The notes below the pieces were generated by a model, which did no database searches, had not been told where the DNA came from, and was given only the letters and a program-made list of their open reading frames with translations. 27,435 nt of DNA from UHGV virus genome UHGV-0266262; one strand, 5' to 3'. This stretch comes from a virus. This document shows positions 3,684 through 25,615 of this stretch, in pieces (the stretch's first letter is position 1; each line of letters begins with the position of its first letter). Made by a program: the position numbers and the translations under genes.

Positions 3684-3705
3684 AAGCCGGTCACTCCGGC
3701 TTTTT
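3684..3705 (+). terminator. Rho-independent terminator for the mnt / 59-aa transcript (possibly bidirectional)
   Basis: AGCCGG-tcact-CCGGCT stem-loop followed by TTTTT on the plus strand; overlaps the last codons of the convergent minus-strand gene. Confidence 0.55.
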
Positions 3706-4056
3706 GATATGTCGCTCGCAGAACTCAACAAGCCTGCTCATTAAGTAGCAGTAAGTCTCGTTGGCTCTTCCTGGTTCAACATCAACACCTACCCTTGAGC
3801 AGATATCGAATGCCATGTGAGCGCACTCATGGGCAATAGTAGATAGTTTGCCATTGAACACGCCTATCACATGCAAAACACCATTCTCGCTACTCATTGT
3901 ATGAGACGCTCCGTTGGCGTCCGAGTCATGCACGTCAACGCCAAGTTTTTGATGCAGGCGTTGCCATTCTGGAAAGTCTCTACAAAACACAATTGTACCG
4001 CTCTCAAAGAGCGGAACGAGCATCTTTGGTACGTTTCCAATGTTAACTTTTTTCAT
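3691..4056 (-). CDS. Hypothetical protein with HExxH motif (possible small zinc metallopeptidase-like protein)
   Basis: 121-aa ORF; motif [14 protein letters not shown] 5 nt upstream of ATG 4056. No family assignment possible from memory. Confidence 0.5.
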
Positions 4057-4086
4057 GGTATCCTGCGCAAAACTAAGGAGGTTGGT

Positions 4087-4581
4087 GTGTCTGATTCTAT
4101 GAGTTACGCTGTGCTAGTTGCCGCAACTCTATTTCTGGGGATAGGGTTGCAGATTGCGTGGTTCTTTTTTTCTAGTTTTATTAAACGTAAAAGAATTGAA
4201 TCAAGGATATCTGAGATTTCTATTGCTATAGGGAAAAATGCTGAAAATCCAGAGAATGAGGCCTGCGCACTGAATTACCTTAAAGAAAAGTTTTCCCCTG
4301 AAAAATTTGAAAACAGAATTACTGATGCTCTTGGATTGGTAATATCAGTAATTCATATGCCACTAAGTTTGCTGATAACAGTGTGGTACTTCGCCATGAT
4401 CGCCGGAAGAATATTTGGTTTCATGAATATAGAGCCTGTAGTTCTTTGGGTTCCAATGATACTGCAATTGTTGTTAAGCTTTGCTATCTTTATTTTTTCT
4501 GTTTTTATAAAAATTGTCTTCGGAAGATACCCCGGAGAAGCGAAGGGATTTAATAAAGAATTCATAAAAACTATAAAATAA
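4087..4581 (+). CDS. AT-rich polytopic inner-membrane protein; candidate superinfection-exclusion protein by position (P22 sieA locus)
   Basis: Three predicted TM helices ([76 protein letters not shown]). Strong SD AAGGAGG 4075-4081 with GTG 4087 (ATG 4099 alternative). Markedly lower GC than flanking genes; opposite strand to the late operon. Confidence 0.55.
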
Positions 4582-4603: not shown

Positions 4604-6445
4604 CTACTGCCGGGTAGCTTCGTTAACTAAGAGCGGGCGCACGGCAGTAGCCGCCTGATTTAGCGCTCTTTCATAAGCTGGCGTTCCAGCTTTAGTGTTT
4701 GCCAGACGTAAGAGCGCATTCCTTGCTGCTTTGGATTCATACAAGCGCATCATTGCACCGAAACCAGCCTCAAGCCCCATTGATACGCCAAGAGTCGTAG
4801 TTGCGCCAATCGTCCTTATCCTGTTGGCTTGCGATTGCCCCGTCTGAGTTACTACATTTGCGGTGTCTGATCTTGCTGTTTGCTGTAGAACTTCATGAAG
4901 AGCATCAAGTTCTTTCATGTGCTTTCCAGAAAAAATAGTGTTGTAAATTTCACCGCCTGACTGAGATTTCAGCTTATTAACTTCCGTGATGAACTTGGCT
5001 GGAGAGTCACCGGCCTTTTCCGCTATTTTGCTGACGTAAGCTGCACGCATAGCATCTTTCCCTTTATCATCCAATGCGCTCCAGATTCGTTTCACGTCAG
5101 ATGGTTTTCTGCTTAATACAACAGTATTTATAAGTTCAGGACTGGCTTCACTGCTTGCCTTGTTGAGCTTGTTAGCAATGTTTTTATTAAGCACCTTATT
5201 ATAAACGTTTGCATAATCGGAATTTGCTTTAAGGTATTTTGCTGCGTCTGATGCACCGAGGTTTTTTGCAACTGCGTTACGAAGGTCTTTTGACATTGCA
5301 TTCTCTACCATATTGGTAGCTGCTTTTGCCTGGTTGGGGAAGACCATAGCATCCCCCTGAACATTAGATCTAAATGCTGTTCTGTGCTGACGTAGGAGAT
5401 CAAACGTAACATCCAAATCAGTTGCAGGGTTTGCTAATTCTTCACGTAGGTTACGCAAGGATGTAAGCAGGCTTTGATTGGCAGACGTCCCAAGCCGTTC
5501 CTGTCTTGCGATCGCTGTATTCAGAGCATTCATGGTATTTGTGGTATCAACTGCGGCATTACCCATTTTATTGGTGACGTCATTGATAACAGCGCCAGCG
5601 GCCTCCTTCCGTCCCCTTAACGTGGTGGTCAGAGATTTCACCACATCATCAGGGTTGTACTCACCAAAACGGTCAAAATAATTGCTTACCAGCTTACTAC
5701 GCGTTGCATATTGCTCCGCTCGCTTTGAGCCTGTCCCGAGCAAAGCCCCCTCAGCATCCTGAGTAAGTCCGCGAGTGAAAGCATTTTTCGGCGGGATAAC
5801 ATCAGATGTCATTGGTGTCACGCCCATCGATTCTGAGGTGGCAATTTTTTTCGCTACTTCTGGCGCGATATCGCCTTTTATAGCAGTTATTCCACGCCCT
5901 ATTCCCTTTGCTGCTGCGGAAAGAACACCCTGAGCGGCAAGGTTAACTCCGGCGTTTATGGCTGCATTTTGCGCGAAATCGCCTTTCTGGTTCGCGGCTT
6001 CTGCCAGTGATCCAATAGCCATGCTTCCTGCCGTTCCAACTCCTGGAACTAAATACCCGCCAATTGTTTCTCCAGCTTGAGCGTAGGGGTCTGTCGGTCG
6101 ATCGACTGGACGATAGACATCATCCAAAACCTTGGGGCCACCAAGCCCCTGACTGATTGCATTAATCAGACTTGCGCCGCCCTGTAATACGTCAAATGGT
6201 ATGTTTACCAGACCACGACCAGCCTGTTCTGCAATTTGCCCTGCACTTTGACCACCAGTGAGCCAATCGCCAGCTTGTTGCATCAATGATGGTTCTTCCC
6301 GTGTTGGTGCATTATTGGCCTGATTAACTATTTGTTGCTGAACAGCCTGACCAGCAAAATACTCATCAATGGCGGTGCCAATATCTTCGGTGCTCGTACC
6401 ATCAGGAAAGGTAAATGTCTTACCGTTTGCAGTTACTTTCATCAT
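4604..6445 (-). CDS. Ejection (DNA-transfer) protein, P22 gp16-like
   Basis: 613 aa (P22 gp16 about 609 aa); last of three consecutive ejection-protein genes in P22 gene order; ATGA overlap with the upstream gene. Confidence 0.75.
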
Positions 6446-7854
6446 TCCACCGTAAATTGAATGCCTGATTTTGACGTGTAGCTACCTCCTGCTGATTGCT
6501 GAGTAGGCGGCTGTTGCATTGATGATTTCTTCCCTCCATTACCGACATTAACGTTATATTGCTGGTTGTAATTGTCGGTATATTGCTGAATGTCGCGCAT
6601 TGATTGTTGCAGTGCTTCAGGGCTTGAGAAATCAACCTGTGGCATACCTTGAAAATACATCTTTGCTTCTGCAACGGTGTTGATACCGGATGCCCCCATG
6701 TCTCTGGCTGCTGCAATGCCCTGATTCTGCATCTTTCCTTGGATTCGCTGTGCAGCGTTGTATAGTTTCCTCTGATCACCACCAGATGCACGGCTACGAA
6801 TATCTGCACCAAGAGCAGGAGAACCTGAAAAGCCTGTAATGCCAGTCATGAAGCCAAGATCGTCAATTGATGCACCAGAAATTGCATCAAGATCTTTCTT
6901 CATTGCGTAATTCTGCGCGCTTGCTGCCGACGTGGCCGGAGCAGCAATAGAGCCAGCAGGAACGCGAACCATGTTCCCCTCATTGTCTATACCTTCGTAG
7001 AACGCGTTAGCACCAGCACCATGAAGTTTCCCGCCTACGGTTACAGTTCTTCCGTCTGCTAGTTGAACTGTGCGCTCATTATTCCCAACCGCCCCTTTCA
7101 TTGATGCTCTCTGCATCGCTAAATCCTGACCGCGTCGCGTAGTAGAAGCAGATAAGTCCTGACCGCGCATCGTGATGTTCTGGCCTCGTGCTGTTAGCGC
7201 CTCGCCAGCCTGATTGCTGCGGATTGTCTCTGCCAGCCTGCCTCGGTCAATCTCACGACCAGCTATCTTGTCCTGAACAGCAAACGCCTTTTCTGGCCCA
7301 AGTGCACCGAGAGACATAGTAGTCAGCATGTGTGATAGCTGCTCGGGATTCTGGATACCTGTCTGAATCATCCAGTCAGCATTAGCACCCACGCGATTTA
7401 ACCTGTCCTTGTTGTCAGTAATGAATTTACTGTAGGCTTCCGGTCCCTGAGAAAGAGCGACGTTAGCCCTCATGGCTAAATCGCCCATATCGTTGCGTTG
7501 CTGCTCATTAAGACCGGAAAACGCCTGTTGTGCCTGTGCAACAAACGCTGGATTTTCCTGGGCAAACTTAAATAGTCCCGATGGATCACCAGAAGCCCAT
7601 GCATCAGCGTGAACCTTATTGAACGCACTAATAGCTTTCTGTTGCTGTTCCTGCTTATAAATATCAGCAACTCCAGCCAGACCACGTAACGCGGTCAGAC
7701 CAACGTTATTTGCACCTGATCGAGCCAGTTCATTGTTTTCGCGGATCAGACCAAGCGTTGCGTTAATGTCGCTTGCCTTTGGCGCATTCTCGTTTTGCGC
7801 ACCAATGCCAGCCAGAAAACCACCAGAATTAATACCCTGTTGCCACGTAGCCAT
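6442..7854 (-). CDS. Ejection protein, P22 gp20-like
   Basis: 470 aa (P22 gp20 about 471 aa); Gly/Ala/Gln-rich; position between the gp7-like and gp16-like genes. Confidence 0.75.
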
Positions 7855-18859: not shown

Positions 18860-21028
<2,169 letters not shown>

Positions 21029-21279: not shown

Positions 21280-21717
21280 TCATCGAAGGCATTGTGTCCT
21301 GATGTATTCCTGCAGGTAGTTAACCTGCGCGGTTATCTTGTCGATTCCACTTCGGAGACGGTAATAATTGAGTTCAGCATCTGCTGTAAGTCCGGGGCTT
21401 TCTCCATCGCCCATGCTGCTGGCTCCGGTCGTTGACTTTGCACAGGTGGCGGCGACTTGCAGGCGCTTACGCCCAGCAGAAACATCAGCACGGAGACTTT
21501 CGATAGTCGCGTTAGCATCAGCAAGCTCCTTTGTATATCTGGCATCGAGTTCTGCTACATCACGTTGACGCTTCTGCATGTCAGCGATAATGGATGCGGC
21601 CTTATCGCGCTGCTCTTTGTAGGCGATGGCGTTATCACGGTAATGATTAACAGCCCATGACAGGCAGACGATGATGCAGATAACCAGATCGGAGATAATC
21701 GCAGTTACTCTGCTCAT
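21280..21717 (-). CDS. Rz: Spanin inner-membrane subunit Rz
   Basis: N-terminal TM helix then coiled-coil periplasmic domain; directly after the endolysin; Rz1 embedded in the +1 frame. Start set at ATG 21717 (alternative 21729). Confidence 0.8.
21333..21518 (-). CDS. Rz1: Spanin outer-membrane lipoprotein Rz1 (embedded in Rz)
   Basis: [20 protein letters not shown] lipobox then Pro-rich region ([16 protein letters not shown]); AAGGAG upstream of ATG 21518. Confidence 0.75.
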
Positions 21718-22211
21718 TGCTGCCCCCACAAACAGACTTCACGCTCAATCTCACGGCGAGTCATCAGCCCTTTCCATTGCTTACCGCCAGCATATGTCCA
21801 GCGACGTAGCTGATCACATGCGCCTTTGATATCGCCCTGGTTTATTTTGCGAAGAAGCGTCGATGTTCTGAAATTGCCAGCACCCACGTTGTAGACGAAC
21901 GAGTAAAGAGCGCCGCGCGTTGTTTCCGGTATATCGACTTTAATGTACGGGTTAATTTGTCTGGCGACCGTGGCAAGGTCTTTATTCAGGAGGGCTTTGC
22001 ATTCTGCTTCGGTATACGTTTTACCGAGCATGATGTCTTTTCCGGTGTGTCCGTGACATACGGTCCATACACCAACAATATCTTTGTATGGTATGTAGCT
22101 GACACCCTCCAGACCATCGTTACCACTTGGGCCAGTGATTAGCACTGATGCTATAGCAATAGCCCCGCCACCAATAGCAGCTGCAACAGCTTTTCGTAAT
22201 GATGGAGGCAT
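21714..22211 (-). CDS. R: SAR endolysin (lysozyme with N-terminal signal-anchor-release domain), phage 21 R-like
   Basis: 165 aa; Gly/Ala-rich weak TM at N-terminus ([20 protein letters not shown]), lysozyme-like body; ATGA overlap with the holin stop. Confidence 0.85.
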
Positions 22212-22426
22212 TATTCACCTCTCGCAGCCTTTCTTCTGTCTTCTCTGATTTTGAAGTACAGATTTGTCAGATAGGTGAGAAAGCCCAACACAAGGCTTCC
22301 AAGCACTCCAATCGCAGCCCACTGTGATGGACTGACCTGATCCAACCACTGTAAAAACCAGTATCCCGCACTACCAGCGGATGTTCCGTAAGCAATGCCA
22401 GTTGAGATTTTGTCCATTGATTTCAT
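22211..22426 (-). CDS. S: Pinholin S21 (class II holin with dual start: MKSM.. antiholin / MDK.. holin)
   Basis: 71 aa [30 protein letters not shown]... matches phage 21 S21 as recalled; GGAGG 7 nt upstream. Confidence 0.9.
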
Positions 22427-22544
22427 AGCAACGCCTCCGCCAGTAACGGATTGCGTAGTTCTTATATTGGGAAGGGGAAAAAAGAAGGCCGCAGCATAAC
22501 TATCACTGATGAATTCAGAATAGCCAGTGGCTACGGCTCAGTAA

Positions 22545-22620
22545 TGGTGCTGGTTAACGGACTTGAACCGCTACCCATTCGCTTACAAGGCGACTGCTCT
22601 ACCATTGGAGCTAAACCAGC
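22545..22620 (-). tRNA. tRNA, 76 nt, CCA encoded; anticodon UGU (Thr) by manual folding
   Basis: Minus strand GCTGGTT-TA-GCTC-CAATGGTA-GAGC-A-GTCGC-CTTGTAA-GCGAA-TGGGT-AGCGG-TTCAAGT-CCGTT-AACCAGC-A-CCA; perfect 7-bp acceptor stem and canonical T-loop. Confidence 0.75.
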
Positions 22621-22625
22621 ATATT

Positions 22626-22700
22626 TGGAGGGGCAGCGTGGACTCGAACCACGATAAGAAGGTTAACGGCCTTCCGTAATGACCTTTATACGACTGACCC
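22626..22700 (-). tRNA. tRNA-like gene, 75 nt, non-canonical (anticodon loop CCGTTAA, apparent GUU, C at position 33; one acceptor-stem mismatch)
   Basis: Perfect T-arm CGTGG-TTCGAGT-CCACG and CCA end; acceptor GGGTCAG/CTGCCCC has one mismatch; 3-bp D-stem. Confidence 0.5.
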
Positions 22701-22746
22701 AAATAAAAAAAGCCACCGTTGCAACTTAAGAGTCACTAACGGCAGC
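22701..22746 (-). terminator. Candidate tR'-like terminator between the late promoter and the tRNA genes
   Basis: Minus-strand RNA GCUGCCGUU...AACGGUGGC (9-bp stem with two G-U pairs, 17-nt loop) followed by UUUUUUUAUUU. Confidence 0.35.
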
Positions 22747-22756
22747 TTACCTTCTA

Positions 22757-22786
22757 ATTATGGCTAAATGGATAATTGCATGTCAA
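22757..22786 (-). promoter_or_regulatory. Candidate late promoter PR' (-35 TTGACA, 18-bp spacer, -10 CATAAT) overlapping the 3' end of Q
   Basis: Sigma-70-like hexamers read on the minus strand immediately downstream of Q, the canonical lambdoid position for PR' and qut. Confidence 0.4.
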
Positions 22787-23282
22787 GACTTTTAACAGCA
22801 ATATGTTTAACTTTCTCAACACGTTTACGCATTTTGAAAGCATTTTGCATTGGTTGGTACAAAACAAATAATGATGCTTTCAGGATGTCGTCAATTTCAT
22901 TTCTACAGGTTGCCAGTGAAGGTTTTCTCCATCCCTCGCCACCACGTCCACACATCTTGCGTGGCTTTGCAGTCGCGTGATAGTAGGATGCAATTGCTCG
23001 CTTAGATGAACCATGAGCGTAGTAGCTGAGGAGGATGCCAAAGGCTTTCTTGTCAATGCACATGACGGAATCAACGACCTGAGAAATCAACATTCCATCA
23101 TCATCATTGCACATTGGCCTTGTCATAATTCTTCCCGGCTCTACGCTCTCCATGAACTTCGCTATTACGCTGCTCATGCGCTTTTCCAGACGACCTGAAT
23201 AAACCCATGCGCCCCACAGTTCAAGCCATCCATTCAGCCAATCGTGCTGTTCTTTGGTGAGGTTTAGTTCTCTTATACCCAT
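22764..23282 (-). CDS. Q: Late-gene antiterminator Q
   Basis: 172 aa; WGAW motif near the N-terminus as in Q proteins of the 82/933W type; located between the nin region and the lysis cassette. Confidence 0.7.
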
Positions 23283-24854: not shown

Positions 24855-25028
24855 CTATTTGAGTAACGATTCGTCGCTGTCTCGCCATACGTCCTCCTTT
24901 TCCTGAGGTAGTGGTAACACCCCTGTTGGTGTTCTTTCACACCGGAGACACCATCGATTCCAGTAAGGTTGCCCGGGTCGAAAGCGATCGTCTTCCTTTC
25001 GCTCTCCACATCGATAACAGTGCTTCAT
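24855..25028 (-). CDS. ninD: NinD-like zinc-ribbon protein (57 aa)
   Basis: [14 protein letters not shown]...WCLRCERTP with two CxxC pairs; ATGA overlap with the methyltransferase stop; size equals lambda NinD (57 aa). Sequence identity to lambda NinD not verified. Confidence 0.55.
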
Positions 25029-25615
25029 GCGATCACCATTTTGCATGGTTTAATCGCCATGCCGGGAGCCAGTTCAAAATCGGAGTCGCACTGATTGCCC
25101 CACATATCCCACCCGGTCACTTTGTCGCGGCTAAATAACTCACAGCGCGGCACGTCGCCAAGCAACTTAGCTAACATGTCTCTTACGATCGGTGGTTTTG
25201 CACTGTGCTCCATTCTCGGTGCGGTAAAGTGCTGGCATATTGAAGCGTCCATTCTCTCAGGCAACCGCCCTCGAACAGCAAACAAGCAATCCTCGCTATT
25301 TGCCCGGGTCATATGCCCCATTCCGATCGCACTGTTGCCTTTGTGCTTATTGGTTTTGTGCCAAGTAAAGCCTTTCATAGTCATCAACCTGAATCCCCAC
25401 GCCTCAATTACCTTTAGCGCTTCGGCTGGCTGTGTCGGCACCCACCACATCGCTAACAAGCAAGATTCTGGATCCGCTAAATCCCATACTGGCAGTCGGC
25501 AAATGTCCTGAACATTCATAACATCGTATTTATGTCCAGCACCGCGATTGCCATCGTTGGCTTTGTCGCGATATTGCCAAGGCGGATCTGCGTAAATAAG
25601 TCGGTATTTGTTCAT
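25025..25615 (-). CDS. DNA N6-adenine methyltransferase, MT-A70 family (DPPW motif)
   Basis: 196 aa; N-terminal IYADPPWQY catalytic motif typical of MT-A70 methyltransferases; occupies the ninC position. Confidence 0.85.

Follow-up and report, generated by a model that had tools for sequence, protein, structure and literature searches.

The window analysed here is the whole 27,435-nucleotide stretch of the virus genome UHGV-0266262. According to ARAGORN it contains exactly two tRNA genes, which lie side by side on the minus strand between the gene of a Q-type late antiterminator and the first gene of a lysis cassette (Table 1). An initial annotation, made from the sequence letters, had placed two tRNA genes at positions 22,545 to 22,700 and had read the anticodon UGU in one of them. 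ARAGORN and Rfam return the same coordinates, and ARAGORN calls both genes, with the anticodons UGU and GUU; both exceed the gathering score of 29 of the Rfam model RF00005. In the direction of transcription tRNA-Asn(GUU) comes first and tRNA-Thr(UGU) follows, so that the odd tRNA of the two leads. The minus strand, the GUU anticodon, U73 of tRNA-Asn and C14 of tRNA-Thr had passed without comment in the initial annotation.

Table 1. The two tRNA genes and their neighbours in the window, in the order of transcription.
Feature	Position	Strand	Basis
Q-type late antiterminator gene, 172 aa	22764..23282	-	Pfam PF06530 Phage_antitermQ, 89.4 bits
PR' late promoter, TTGACA-18 nt-CATAAT, 11/12 consensus	22757..22786	-	Promoter scan
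Late leader with tR' intrinsic terminator	22702..22748	-	RNA fold and match to Sf6 and phage 21
tRNA-Asn(GUU), 75 nt, CCA encoded	22626..22700	-	ARAGORN; Rfam RF00005, 48.8 bits
Spacer AAUAU between the tRNA genes, 5 nt	22621..22625	-	Sequence
tRNA-Thr(UGU), 76 nt, CCA encoded	22545..22620	-	ARAGORN; Rfam RF00005, 61.5 bits
Structured spacer ahead of the holin gene, 118 nt	22427..22544	-	RNA fold
S21-type class II pinholin, first lysis-cassette gene	22211..22426	-	Pfam PF04971, 122 bits; phage 21 annotation
SAR endolysin	22211..21714	-	Pfam PF00959; phage 21 annotation
Rz	21729..21280	-	Pfam PF03245; phage 21 annotation

The tRNA-Thr of the window has the anticodon loop CUUGUAA, in which U33 is present, and shares G1-C72, C2-G71, the UGU anticodon and A73 with E. 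coli thrU. E. coli ThrRS recognises its substrates by G1-C72, C2-G71, G35 and U36, and sequence comparison finds all of these identity positions in the window tRNA-Thr. This gene, described as canonical, scores 61.5 bits, and yet C14 replaces an A14 that is nearly universal among tRNAs; position 14 varies across the family of related tRNA-Thr genes.

The tRNA-Asn is the more unusual of the two, and every feature that the initial annotation had listed for it is seen. Its anticodon loop CCGUUAA places C33 at position 22,668 of the minus strand, its acceptor stem contains a single mismatch, U4·C69, and its D-stem has three Watson-Crick pairs, with U·U at 13·22, while the T-arm is perfect (CGUGG/CCACG, with the loop UUCGAGU) and the CCA end is complete. 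U8 and A14 are in place, and G18-G19, the T-loops and CCA are found in both tRNAs. A bacterial elongator tRNA is expected to have U33, which is present in tRNA-Thr and absent from the window copy of tRNA-Asn. The discriminator base of that copy is U73, where the family has G73. E. coli AsnRS identifies its tRNA by G34, U35 and U36 together with the discriminator G73; the window tRNA-Asn has the GUU anticodon, but U73 instead of G73.

The initial annotation had located the genes in the late leader between Q/PR' and the holin gene, and this location is borne out by Pfam matches on both flanks and by the records of phage 21 and Sf6. The antiterminator gene has the length of Sf6 gp59 and occupies a position homologous to that of Sf6 gene 59 and of phage 21 Q. 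PR' overlaps the 3′ end of the Q gene and is the base-for-base equivalent of the promoter annotated in Sf6 (L002 1265-1294); the alignment of the window with Sf6 continues base for base across promoter, leader and terminator. The promoter scan detected PR' and no second promoter upstream of the tRNA genes on the minus strand, and a separate tRNA promoter was rejected on that ground. The tR' hairpin extends from 22748 to 22710, is followed by a run of seven U residues, and has a predicted folding energy of -20.2 kcal/mol (z = -4.4 against shuffled sequences). A consensus terminator scan with a loop limit of 8 nt had missed it, and it was recovered by folding the leader. The terminator/qut region is identical to that annotated in Sf6 and phage 21. 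tRNA-Asn begins about 1-3 nt past the end of tR', three bases beyond the run of U residues, and the 5-nt spacing between the two tRNA genes recurs in phage 21 and Sf6.

Downstream of the tRNA genes, the spacer ahead of the holin gene forms a long predicted hairpin (22537..22488) followed by CUUCUUUUUU, with a folding energy of -36.4 kcal/mol (z = -3.25). This spacer is 97% conserved in phage 21 and in E. coli K71-77, and the ribosome-binding site of the holin gene lies within its 3′ part. Its hairpin may serve as a second terminator or in the processing of the transcript. Within the late region Q, PR' and tR' are Sf6-like, and the holin, SAR endolysin and Rz genes phage-21-like. Further downstream lie P22-type terminase, portal, scaffold, coat and ejection-protein genes and a head-binding tailspike gene, and because of these P22-type morphogenesis genes the window is a P22-like (Lederbergvirus-like) prophage.

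An element of the IS21/IS100 family sits between Rz and the small terminase gene, and its IstB frame contains a premature in-frame stop. The late structural open reading frames of the prophage appear intact, and the prophage is not demonstrably dead. A search with PADLOC and Pfam revealed no defence or anti-defence gene adjoining the tRNA pair, and gave no match on the orphan open reading frames at 3871-4581 (plus strand), 3691-4056 (minus strand) and 20798-21028 (minus strand). A reading of the tRNA sequences as remnants at an attB/attP site was rejected, as both genes are complete, carry an encoded CCA and sit mid-prophage, flanked by Q and the holin gene, and as the same place is occupied in free phage genomes.

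The combination of tRNA-Asn and tRNA-Thr is already known as a late-leader module of phage 21, Sf6 and P22-like phages. The phage 21 record gives the order Q, the -35 and -10 elements of PR', the Q-binding element, the transcription start, the terminator, tRNA-Asn, tRNA-Thr and the S21 antiholin/holin gene; the Sf6 record has the same layout and labels its tRNAs as ‘similar to phage 21’. In the window, too, the pair follows Q, PR' and tR' and precedes the lysis cassette. The genome paper of SfI described two tandem tRNAs downstream of Q, and noted them also in Sf6, ST64T, PS3 and phage 21 (PMC3636060). RNA-seq of BTP1 lysogens already places both tRNA genes with the highly expressed features of the prophage, whose lytic operon starts directly after them (PMC7067206). 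The pair as a feature changes nothing; it is annotated in GenBank for phage 21, Sf6, SfI and BTP1, and also in hundreds of E. coli genomes, where the NCBI pipeline annotates it in the chromosomes.

Database comparisons illustrate how widespread the module is. With the annotated pair the region shares 95-99% identity, both in phage records, of which there are dozens, and in E. coli genomes, where the matches run into the hundreds; judged by sequence similarity, this is far beyond chance. Depending on the search, the pair was found in 61-98 phage records, a 451-nt region being matched by 98 of them, and the best phage record is 97.6% identical over 166 nt. Among 5,426 complete E. coli genomes, 369 contain the pair. 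We also scanned IMG/VR with a search anchored on the anticodon arm of tRNA-Thr, which left the Asn gene free to vary, and collected 120 loci. Asn(GUU) partners Thr(UGU) in about 112 of these, in several gene orders, and the order Asn-Thr is found in 89. The tRNA-Thr allele of the window is the commonest of its family (61 of the 120 loci) and is also that of phage 21, Sf6 and K71-77.

This collection separates the traits that the window tRNAs share with their family from those that are peculiar to one copy. The consensus tRNA-Asn, GGGUCAGUCGUAUAAAGGUCAUUACGGAAGGCUGUUAACCUUCUUAUCGUGGUUCGAGUCCACGCUGUCCCGCCA, has U33, a U4·U69 mismatch and G73, and the window tRNA-Asn departs from it at exactly three sites, U33C, U69C and G73U. 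In an alignment of 22 distinct Asn-family sequences, seven stem pairs change on both sides, and none of 500 shuffles reaches the observed covariation score. Pair 4·69 is nevertheless unpaired in 21 of the 22 distinct sequences, and pair 13·22 in 21 of 21. The Thr family likewise has compensated stem variants in its acceptor and T-stems (GCUGGUU/AACCAGC, GCCGGCU/AGCCGGC and GCCGUCA/UGACGGC). Since the 4·69 and 13·22 mismatches are nearly universal in a covarying family, the acceptor mismatch and the short D-stem are conserved features of a selected tRNA and not signs of decay. As marks of a degenerate or specialised RNA, the sense given to them in the initial annotation, they are not upheld; they are family traits that persist alongside compensatory stem changes.

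Expression of the pair had been proposed to be coupled to Q-dependent late transcription. This proposal stands in so far as the position of the genes means that their transcription should need read-through of tR'; strict dependence on Q, like the processing route of the two tRNAs, is something we infer from the arrangement of the locus. Polymerase starting at PR' would mostly halt at tR' unless modified by Q, and read-through past tR' would make the tRNAs the first elements of the late transcript. Host RNase P and 3′ processing would then release them, with CCA already encoded, and they would add decoding capacity at the time when large amounts of capsid, tail and lysis proteins are produced. 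ACA is the codon read by tRNA-Thr(UGU), and AAC and AAU are those read by tRNA-Asn(GUU).

A comparison of codon usage between late genes and host, which the initial annotation had suggested, bears on the last of these steps. In 16 late open reading frames ACA occurs at 16.9 per thousand codons, against 5.5 in 39 genes of E. coli K-12 (odds ratio 3.1, p = 2e-13), and Asn codons occur at 49.3 against 35.4 per thousand (odds ratio 1.4, p = 7e-6), while AAA, which encodes Lys, does not differ between late genes and K-12 sample. The roughly threefold enrichment of ACA in late genes is thereby confirmed, and that of Asn codons more weakly. These enrichments fit the classical codon-supply explanation. 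For SfI, ACA was reported at 17.3 against 7.1, and its authors found no bias in Asn codons and considered the significance of tRNA-Asn ‘not clear’ (PMC3636060). The codons AGA, AGG and AUA are proportionally more enriched in the late genes of the window than ACA, and the module has no matching tRNA for them, which speaks against codon supply as the whole explanation. As the host has several tRNA-Asn genes, the supply of this tRNA may not be limiting.

A different reason for keeping the pair would be counter-defence. Lambdoid and P22-like phages may retain Asn(GUU) and Thr(UGU) chiefly as resistant replacements or decoys against the tRNA immunity of rival prophages or satellites, being maintained because nucleases deplete the corresponding host tRNAs; such a role is compatible with codon supply, and as the main role we consider it unlikely. 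AriB, the nuclease of PARIS, has Lys(UUU), Thr(UGU) and Asn(GUU) as its main targets; T5 encodes variants of all three, and these neutralise PARIS (PMC12409363, Belukhina et al.). The nuclease HepS of the Gifsy-1 prophage, which is triggered by lambdoid J proteins, cuts tRNA-Thr, including that with the anticodon UGU (PMC13043305). The anticodons of the pair are thus two of the three main AriB targets, and its tRNA-Thr corresponds to a HepS target as well, a coincidence that can be tested.

AriB requires the sequence U36-A-A-U39-C40|A41; cleavage is lost with the substitution U39A and weakened with A41C or U16C (PMC12409363). At positions 36-41, E. coli thrU reads UAAUCA, the Thr tRNA of T5 UAAGCA, the T4-type Thr tRNA UAAUGA and the window tRNA-Thr UAAGCG; E. 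coli asnT reads UAAUCC, the Asn tRNA of T5 UAAGUU, and the tRNA-Asn of the family and of the window UAACCU. Both window tRNAs therefore lack the UAAU motif of AriB, and both have A16 instead of U16. Each combines the anticodon of an AriB target with substitutions in the recognition site, and may for this reason be resistant to cleavage. The window tRNA-Thr has the same G39 change as its T5 counterpart, the T4-type tRNA-Thr having C40G. A counter-defence role would also explain why Asn(GUU) is found together with Thr(UGU) so often, in about 112 of the 120 loci, although Asn codons are only modestly enriched. The conserved U4·U69 mismatch and the unusual D-loops could also be part of an escape from nucleases.

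However, loss of the motif is weak evidence, as an unrelated tRNA usually differs at positions 39-41 by chance, and that the anticodons of the pair coincide with AriB targets is a post hoc observation. tRNAs that read ANN codons are also what an AT-richer phage needs for its codon supply. Moreover, the T5 tRNA-Lys was necessary for rescue from PARIS (PMC12409363), and Lys is the prime target of AriB, but ARAGORN found no Lys(UUU) gene in the window, and in all 120 related IMG/VR loci the pair is without one. In the literature searched, we found no publication that links the Asn/Thr pair to PARIS, HepS or anticodon nucleases. The BASEL paper with Bas106, which carries the pair, contains no tRNA or PARIS data. 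Resistance of the pair to these nucleases, if it exists, would supply a reason for the tRNA-Asn, the significance of which was not clear to the authors of the SfI paper, and it would extend counter-defence by phage tRNAs from large virulent to small temperate phages. Codon supply in the late phase is the preferred reading, and the same tRNAs may in addition shield the phage from tRNA nucleases of the host or of prophages.

The feature of the pair that sets the window apart from the relatives scanned is C33 of tRNA-Asn. In the set derived from IMG/VR, about 113 Asn(GUU) genes have U33, save one with A33, and none has C33. Exact scans for the C33 allele gave no hit in IMG/VR (2.9 million viral contigs), in 185,579 GTDB species-representative genomes or in the JGI metagenomes (241 million records), and C33 is absent at 393 places in E. 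coli genomes and in 61 phage records. The nearest copy in an E. coli genome, that of K71-77, is identical to the window over 166 nt except for a T at tRNA position 33. Because K71-77 and two IMG/VR loci have C69 and U73, the history is that of a C69/U73 minor allele which arose first and a private U33C transition which followed later.

This sequence of changes is mirrored in the Rfam tRNA score, which falls from 55.3 bits in phage 21 to 53.6 in K71-77 and 48.8 in the window, the loss of U33 costing about 5 bits. In tRNAs the U-turn of the anticodon loop is built on U33, and E. coli AsnRS uses G73 as an identity element. Insertion of queuosine by E. coli Tgt requires recognition of U33-G34-U35, so that C33 should block the formation of Q34. 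In ViennaRNA predictions C33 lets C32-C33 pair with G26-G27, and in the predicted ensemble, which leaves tertiary contacts and base modifications out, the probability of the anticodon stem drops from 0.68 to 0.05 and that of a competing hairpin rises from 0.31 to 0.95. The loss of U33, the loss of G73 and the predicted competing hairpin together suggest that the tRNA-Asn copy of the window is most likely impaired, and taken with the nonsense-mutated insertion element next door, an impaired and drifting copy is the most economical reading. The tRNA-Thr copy, which is the commonest allele, is presumably functional.

A neutral polymorphism or an error of sequencing would look no different from a single private substitution such as this. 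That C33 is an error of sequencing or assembly, the true sequence being U33/C69/U73 as in K71-77, would agree with the one-base difference to K71-77 over 166 nt and with an allele that is seen nowhere else. We nonetheless regard an error as improbable, as the change is a T-to-C transition in non-repetitive sequence and not the homopolymer indel typical of sequencing errors, and as other point lesions at the locus, such as the stop in IstB, suggest real mutational decay. It is more improbable still that C33 is adaptive and that U33C makes a specialised tRNA-Asn which escapes an anticodon-loop nuclease or the insertion of queuosine by Tgt: loop mutations have been proposed as a means by which phage tRNAs escape anticodon nucleases (PMC10264068), and tRNA-Asn is a target of colicin E5 and AriB (PMC10264068, PMC12409363), but an adaptive allele should spread, whereas this one is a singleton with no match in the viral, species-genome and metagenome sets, it gives up a near-universal U33 at a cost of about 5 bits, it favours a predicted non-cloverleaf fold, and it is combined with U73, so that the Asn discriminator is missing, next to an insertion element with a nonsense mutation.

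The initial annotation had suggested that the second gene may be a degenerate or specialised tRNA-like RNA. Of the two, degenerate is the better description, and for the window copy only, and there is no call for a novel specialised RNA, as the gene belongs to the known family of tRNA-Asn(GUU). Keeping C33 apart from the traits of the family prevents such an over-reading of the Asn gene. In all, the locus is a known late-leader tRNA module, which very probably serves codon supply in the late phase of infection and whose Asn copy is, in this prophage, most likely impaired.

The closest known systems are the pairs of coliphage 21, Sf6, SfI, BTP1 and ST64T, which have in common with the window the gene order, the 5-nt spacer and the site just past the U-tract of tR'. 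Compared with the pair of phage 21 and Sf6, the tRNA-Thr of the window is 100% identical, and its tRNA-Asn differs at 3 of 75 positions (33, 69 and 73). Of these differences, C33 belongs to the window copy only, while C69/U73 is the minor allele common to E. coli K71-77 and 2 of the 120 IMG/VR loci. Unlike these phages, the window prophage has an IS21-family insertion downstream of its lysis genes. Shiga toxin phages such as 933W presumably have an analogous arrangement, the ileZ-argN-argO cluster, which is part of the late transcript and follows closely on Q, PR' and tR'. We take this cluster to resemble the Asn/Thr module in that both decode triplets seldom used by the host but employed in phage late genes, and to differ from it in its Ile and Arg anticodons, in its unrelated sequences and in being followed by stx rather than by a holin gene. 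A more distant likeness is that to the anti-PARIS tRNAs of T5, which have the same Thr and Asn anticodons, have also lost the host U39 of UAAU and have the D-loop U16 replaced, as in the window pair; they are otherwise unrelated in sequence, and they include a Lys(UUU) partner that has no equivalent here. T5 is, moreover, a virulent phage which expresses 24 tRNAs from their own promoters, whereas the window carries a pair in the late leader.

The U4·U69 mismatch in the acceptor stem is a stable property of the phage tRNA-Asn family. When the tRNA-Asn gene of the window (22626-22700) was aligned with 22 distinct relatives (alignment A2), the mismatch was found to be kept in 21 of the 22 distinct sequences. 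Lineages in which pairs 6-67 and 7-66 have undergone compensatory changes retain it, as does one lineage whose D, anticodon and T arms are wholly different. Neither E. coli asnT nor the tRNA-Asn of phage T5 has this mismatch, in contrast to the phage family.

The tRNA-Thr family has distinctive features of its own. Position 14 of tRNAs is nearly universally A; this family, with the window gene (22545-22620), has C14, within the D-loop CAAUGGUA, and C, U, G or A are found at this position among relatives. Furthermore, the phage family has A15-U48, whereas the host counterpart has G15-C48. In the 120 IMG/VR loci (L003-L122), the Thr(UGU) gene also has relatives within larger clusters (e.g. Asn-Phe-Thr-Arg(UCU), Thr-Ala-Asn-Tyr and Asn-Tyr-Thr-Ser), and some contigs bear a lone Thr gene immediately 3′ of another, different terminator. 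A Lys(UUU) gene is absent from all of these loci.

The sequence that separates tRNA-Thr from the start of the holin gene folds into a long hairpin; the base of this is GC-rich, and CUUCUUUUUU comes next. The predicted fold has a free energy of -36.4 kcal/mol (z = -3.25), and in phage 21 and E. coli K71-77 conservation of the spacer is 97%. The hairpin with its U-run resembles either a processing hairpin or an intrinsic terminator additional to tR'; the curated record of phage 21 holds no annotation for it.

Features of the window outside the tRNA genes
Feature	Position	Strand	Context
Tailspike gene, 863 aa	230-2821	minus	P22-type head-binding domain; C-terminal endosialidase-chaperone (Peptidase_S74) domain
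236-aa ORF	3871-4581	+	between ejection-protein genes and tailspike, opposite strand
IS21/IS100-family element (istA, istB)	18946-20747	+	between Rz/Rz1 and small terminase gene
tRNA-Thr-to-holin spacer	22427-22544	minus	hairpin 22537..22488, U-run 22487..22478
MT-A70 family DNA methyltransferase gene	25025-25615	minus	nin region

The IS21/IS100-family element runs antisense to the late operon and is itself decaying: a premature in-frame stop codon at 20250-20252 interrupts IstB. The pairing of the two tailspike domains points to a spike with specificity for a capsule or O-antigen, different from those of P22 and Sf6. The nearby 236-aa ORF occupies a moron-like position, and matched nothing in Pfam or PADLOC.

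Finally, positions 5109-6495 of the E. coli K71-77 locus (L123, NZ_CP040886.1) were set against window positions 22426-23282. In K71-77 the tRNA pair and the S21 lysis cassette are the same, but the antiterminator gene and terminator ahead of them differ from those of the window. Because homology between the two starts exactly at the terminator T-tract, the 5′ edge of tRNA-Asn is the site of a mosaic recombination joint. The nin region of K71-77 also differs, with a DNA cytosine methyltransferase in place of the MT-A70 family gene.
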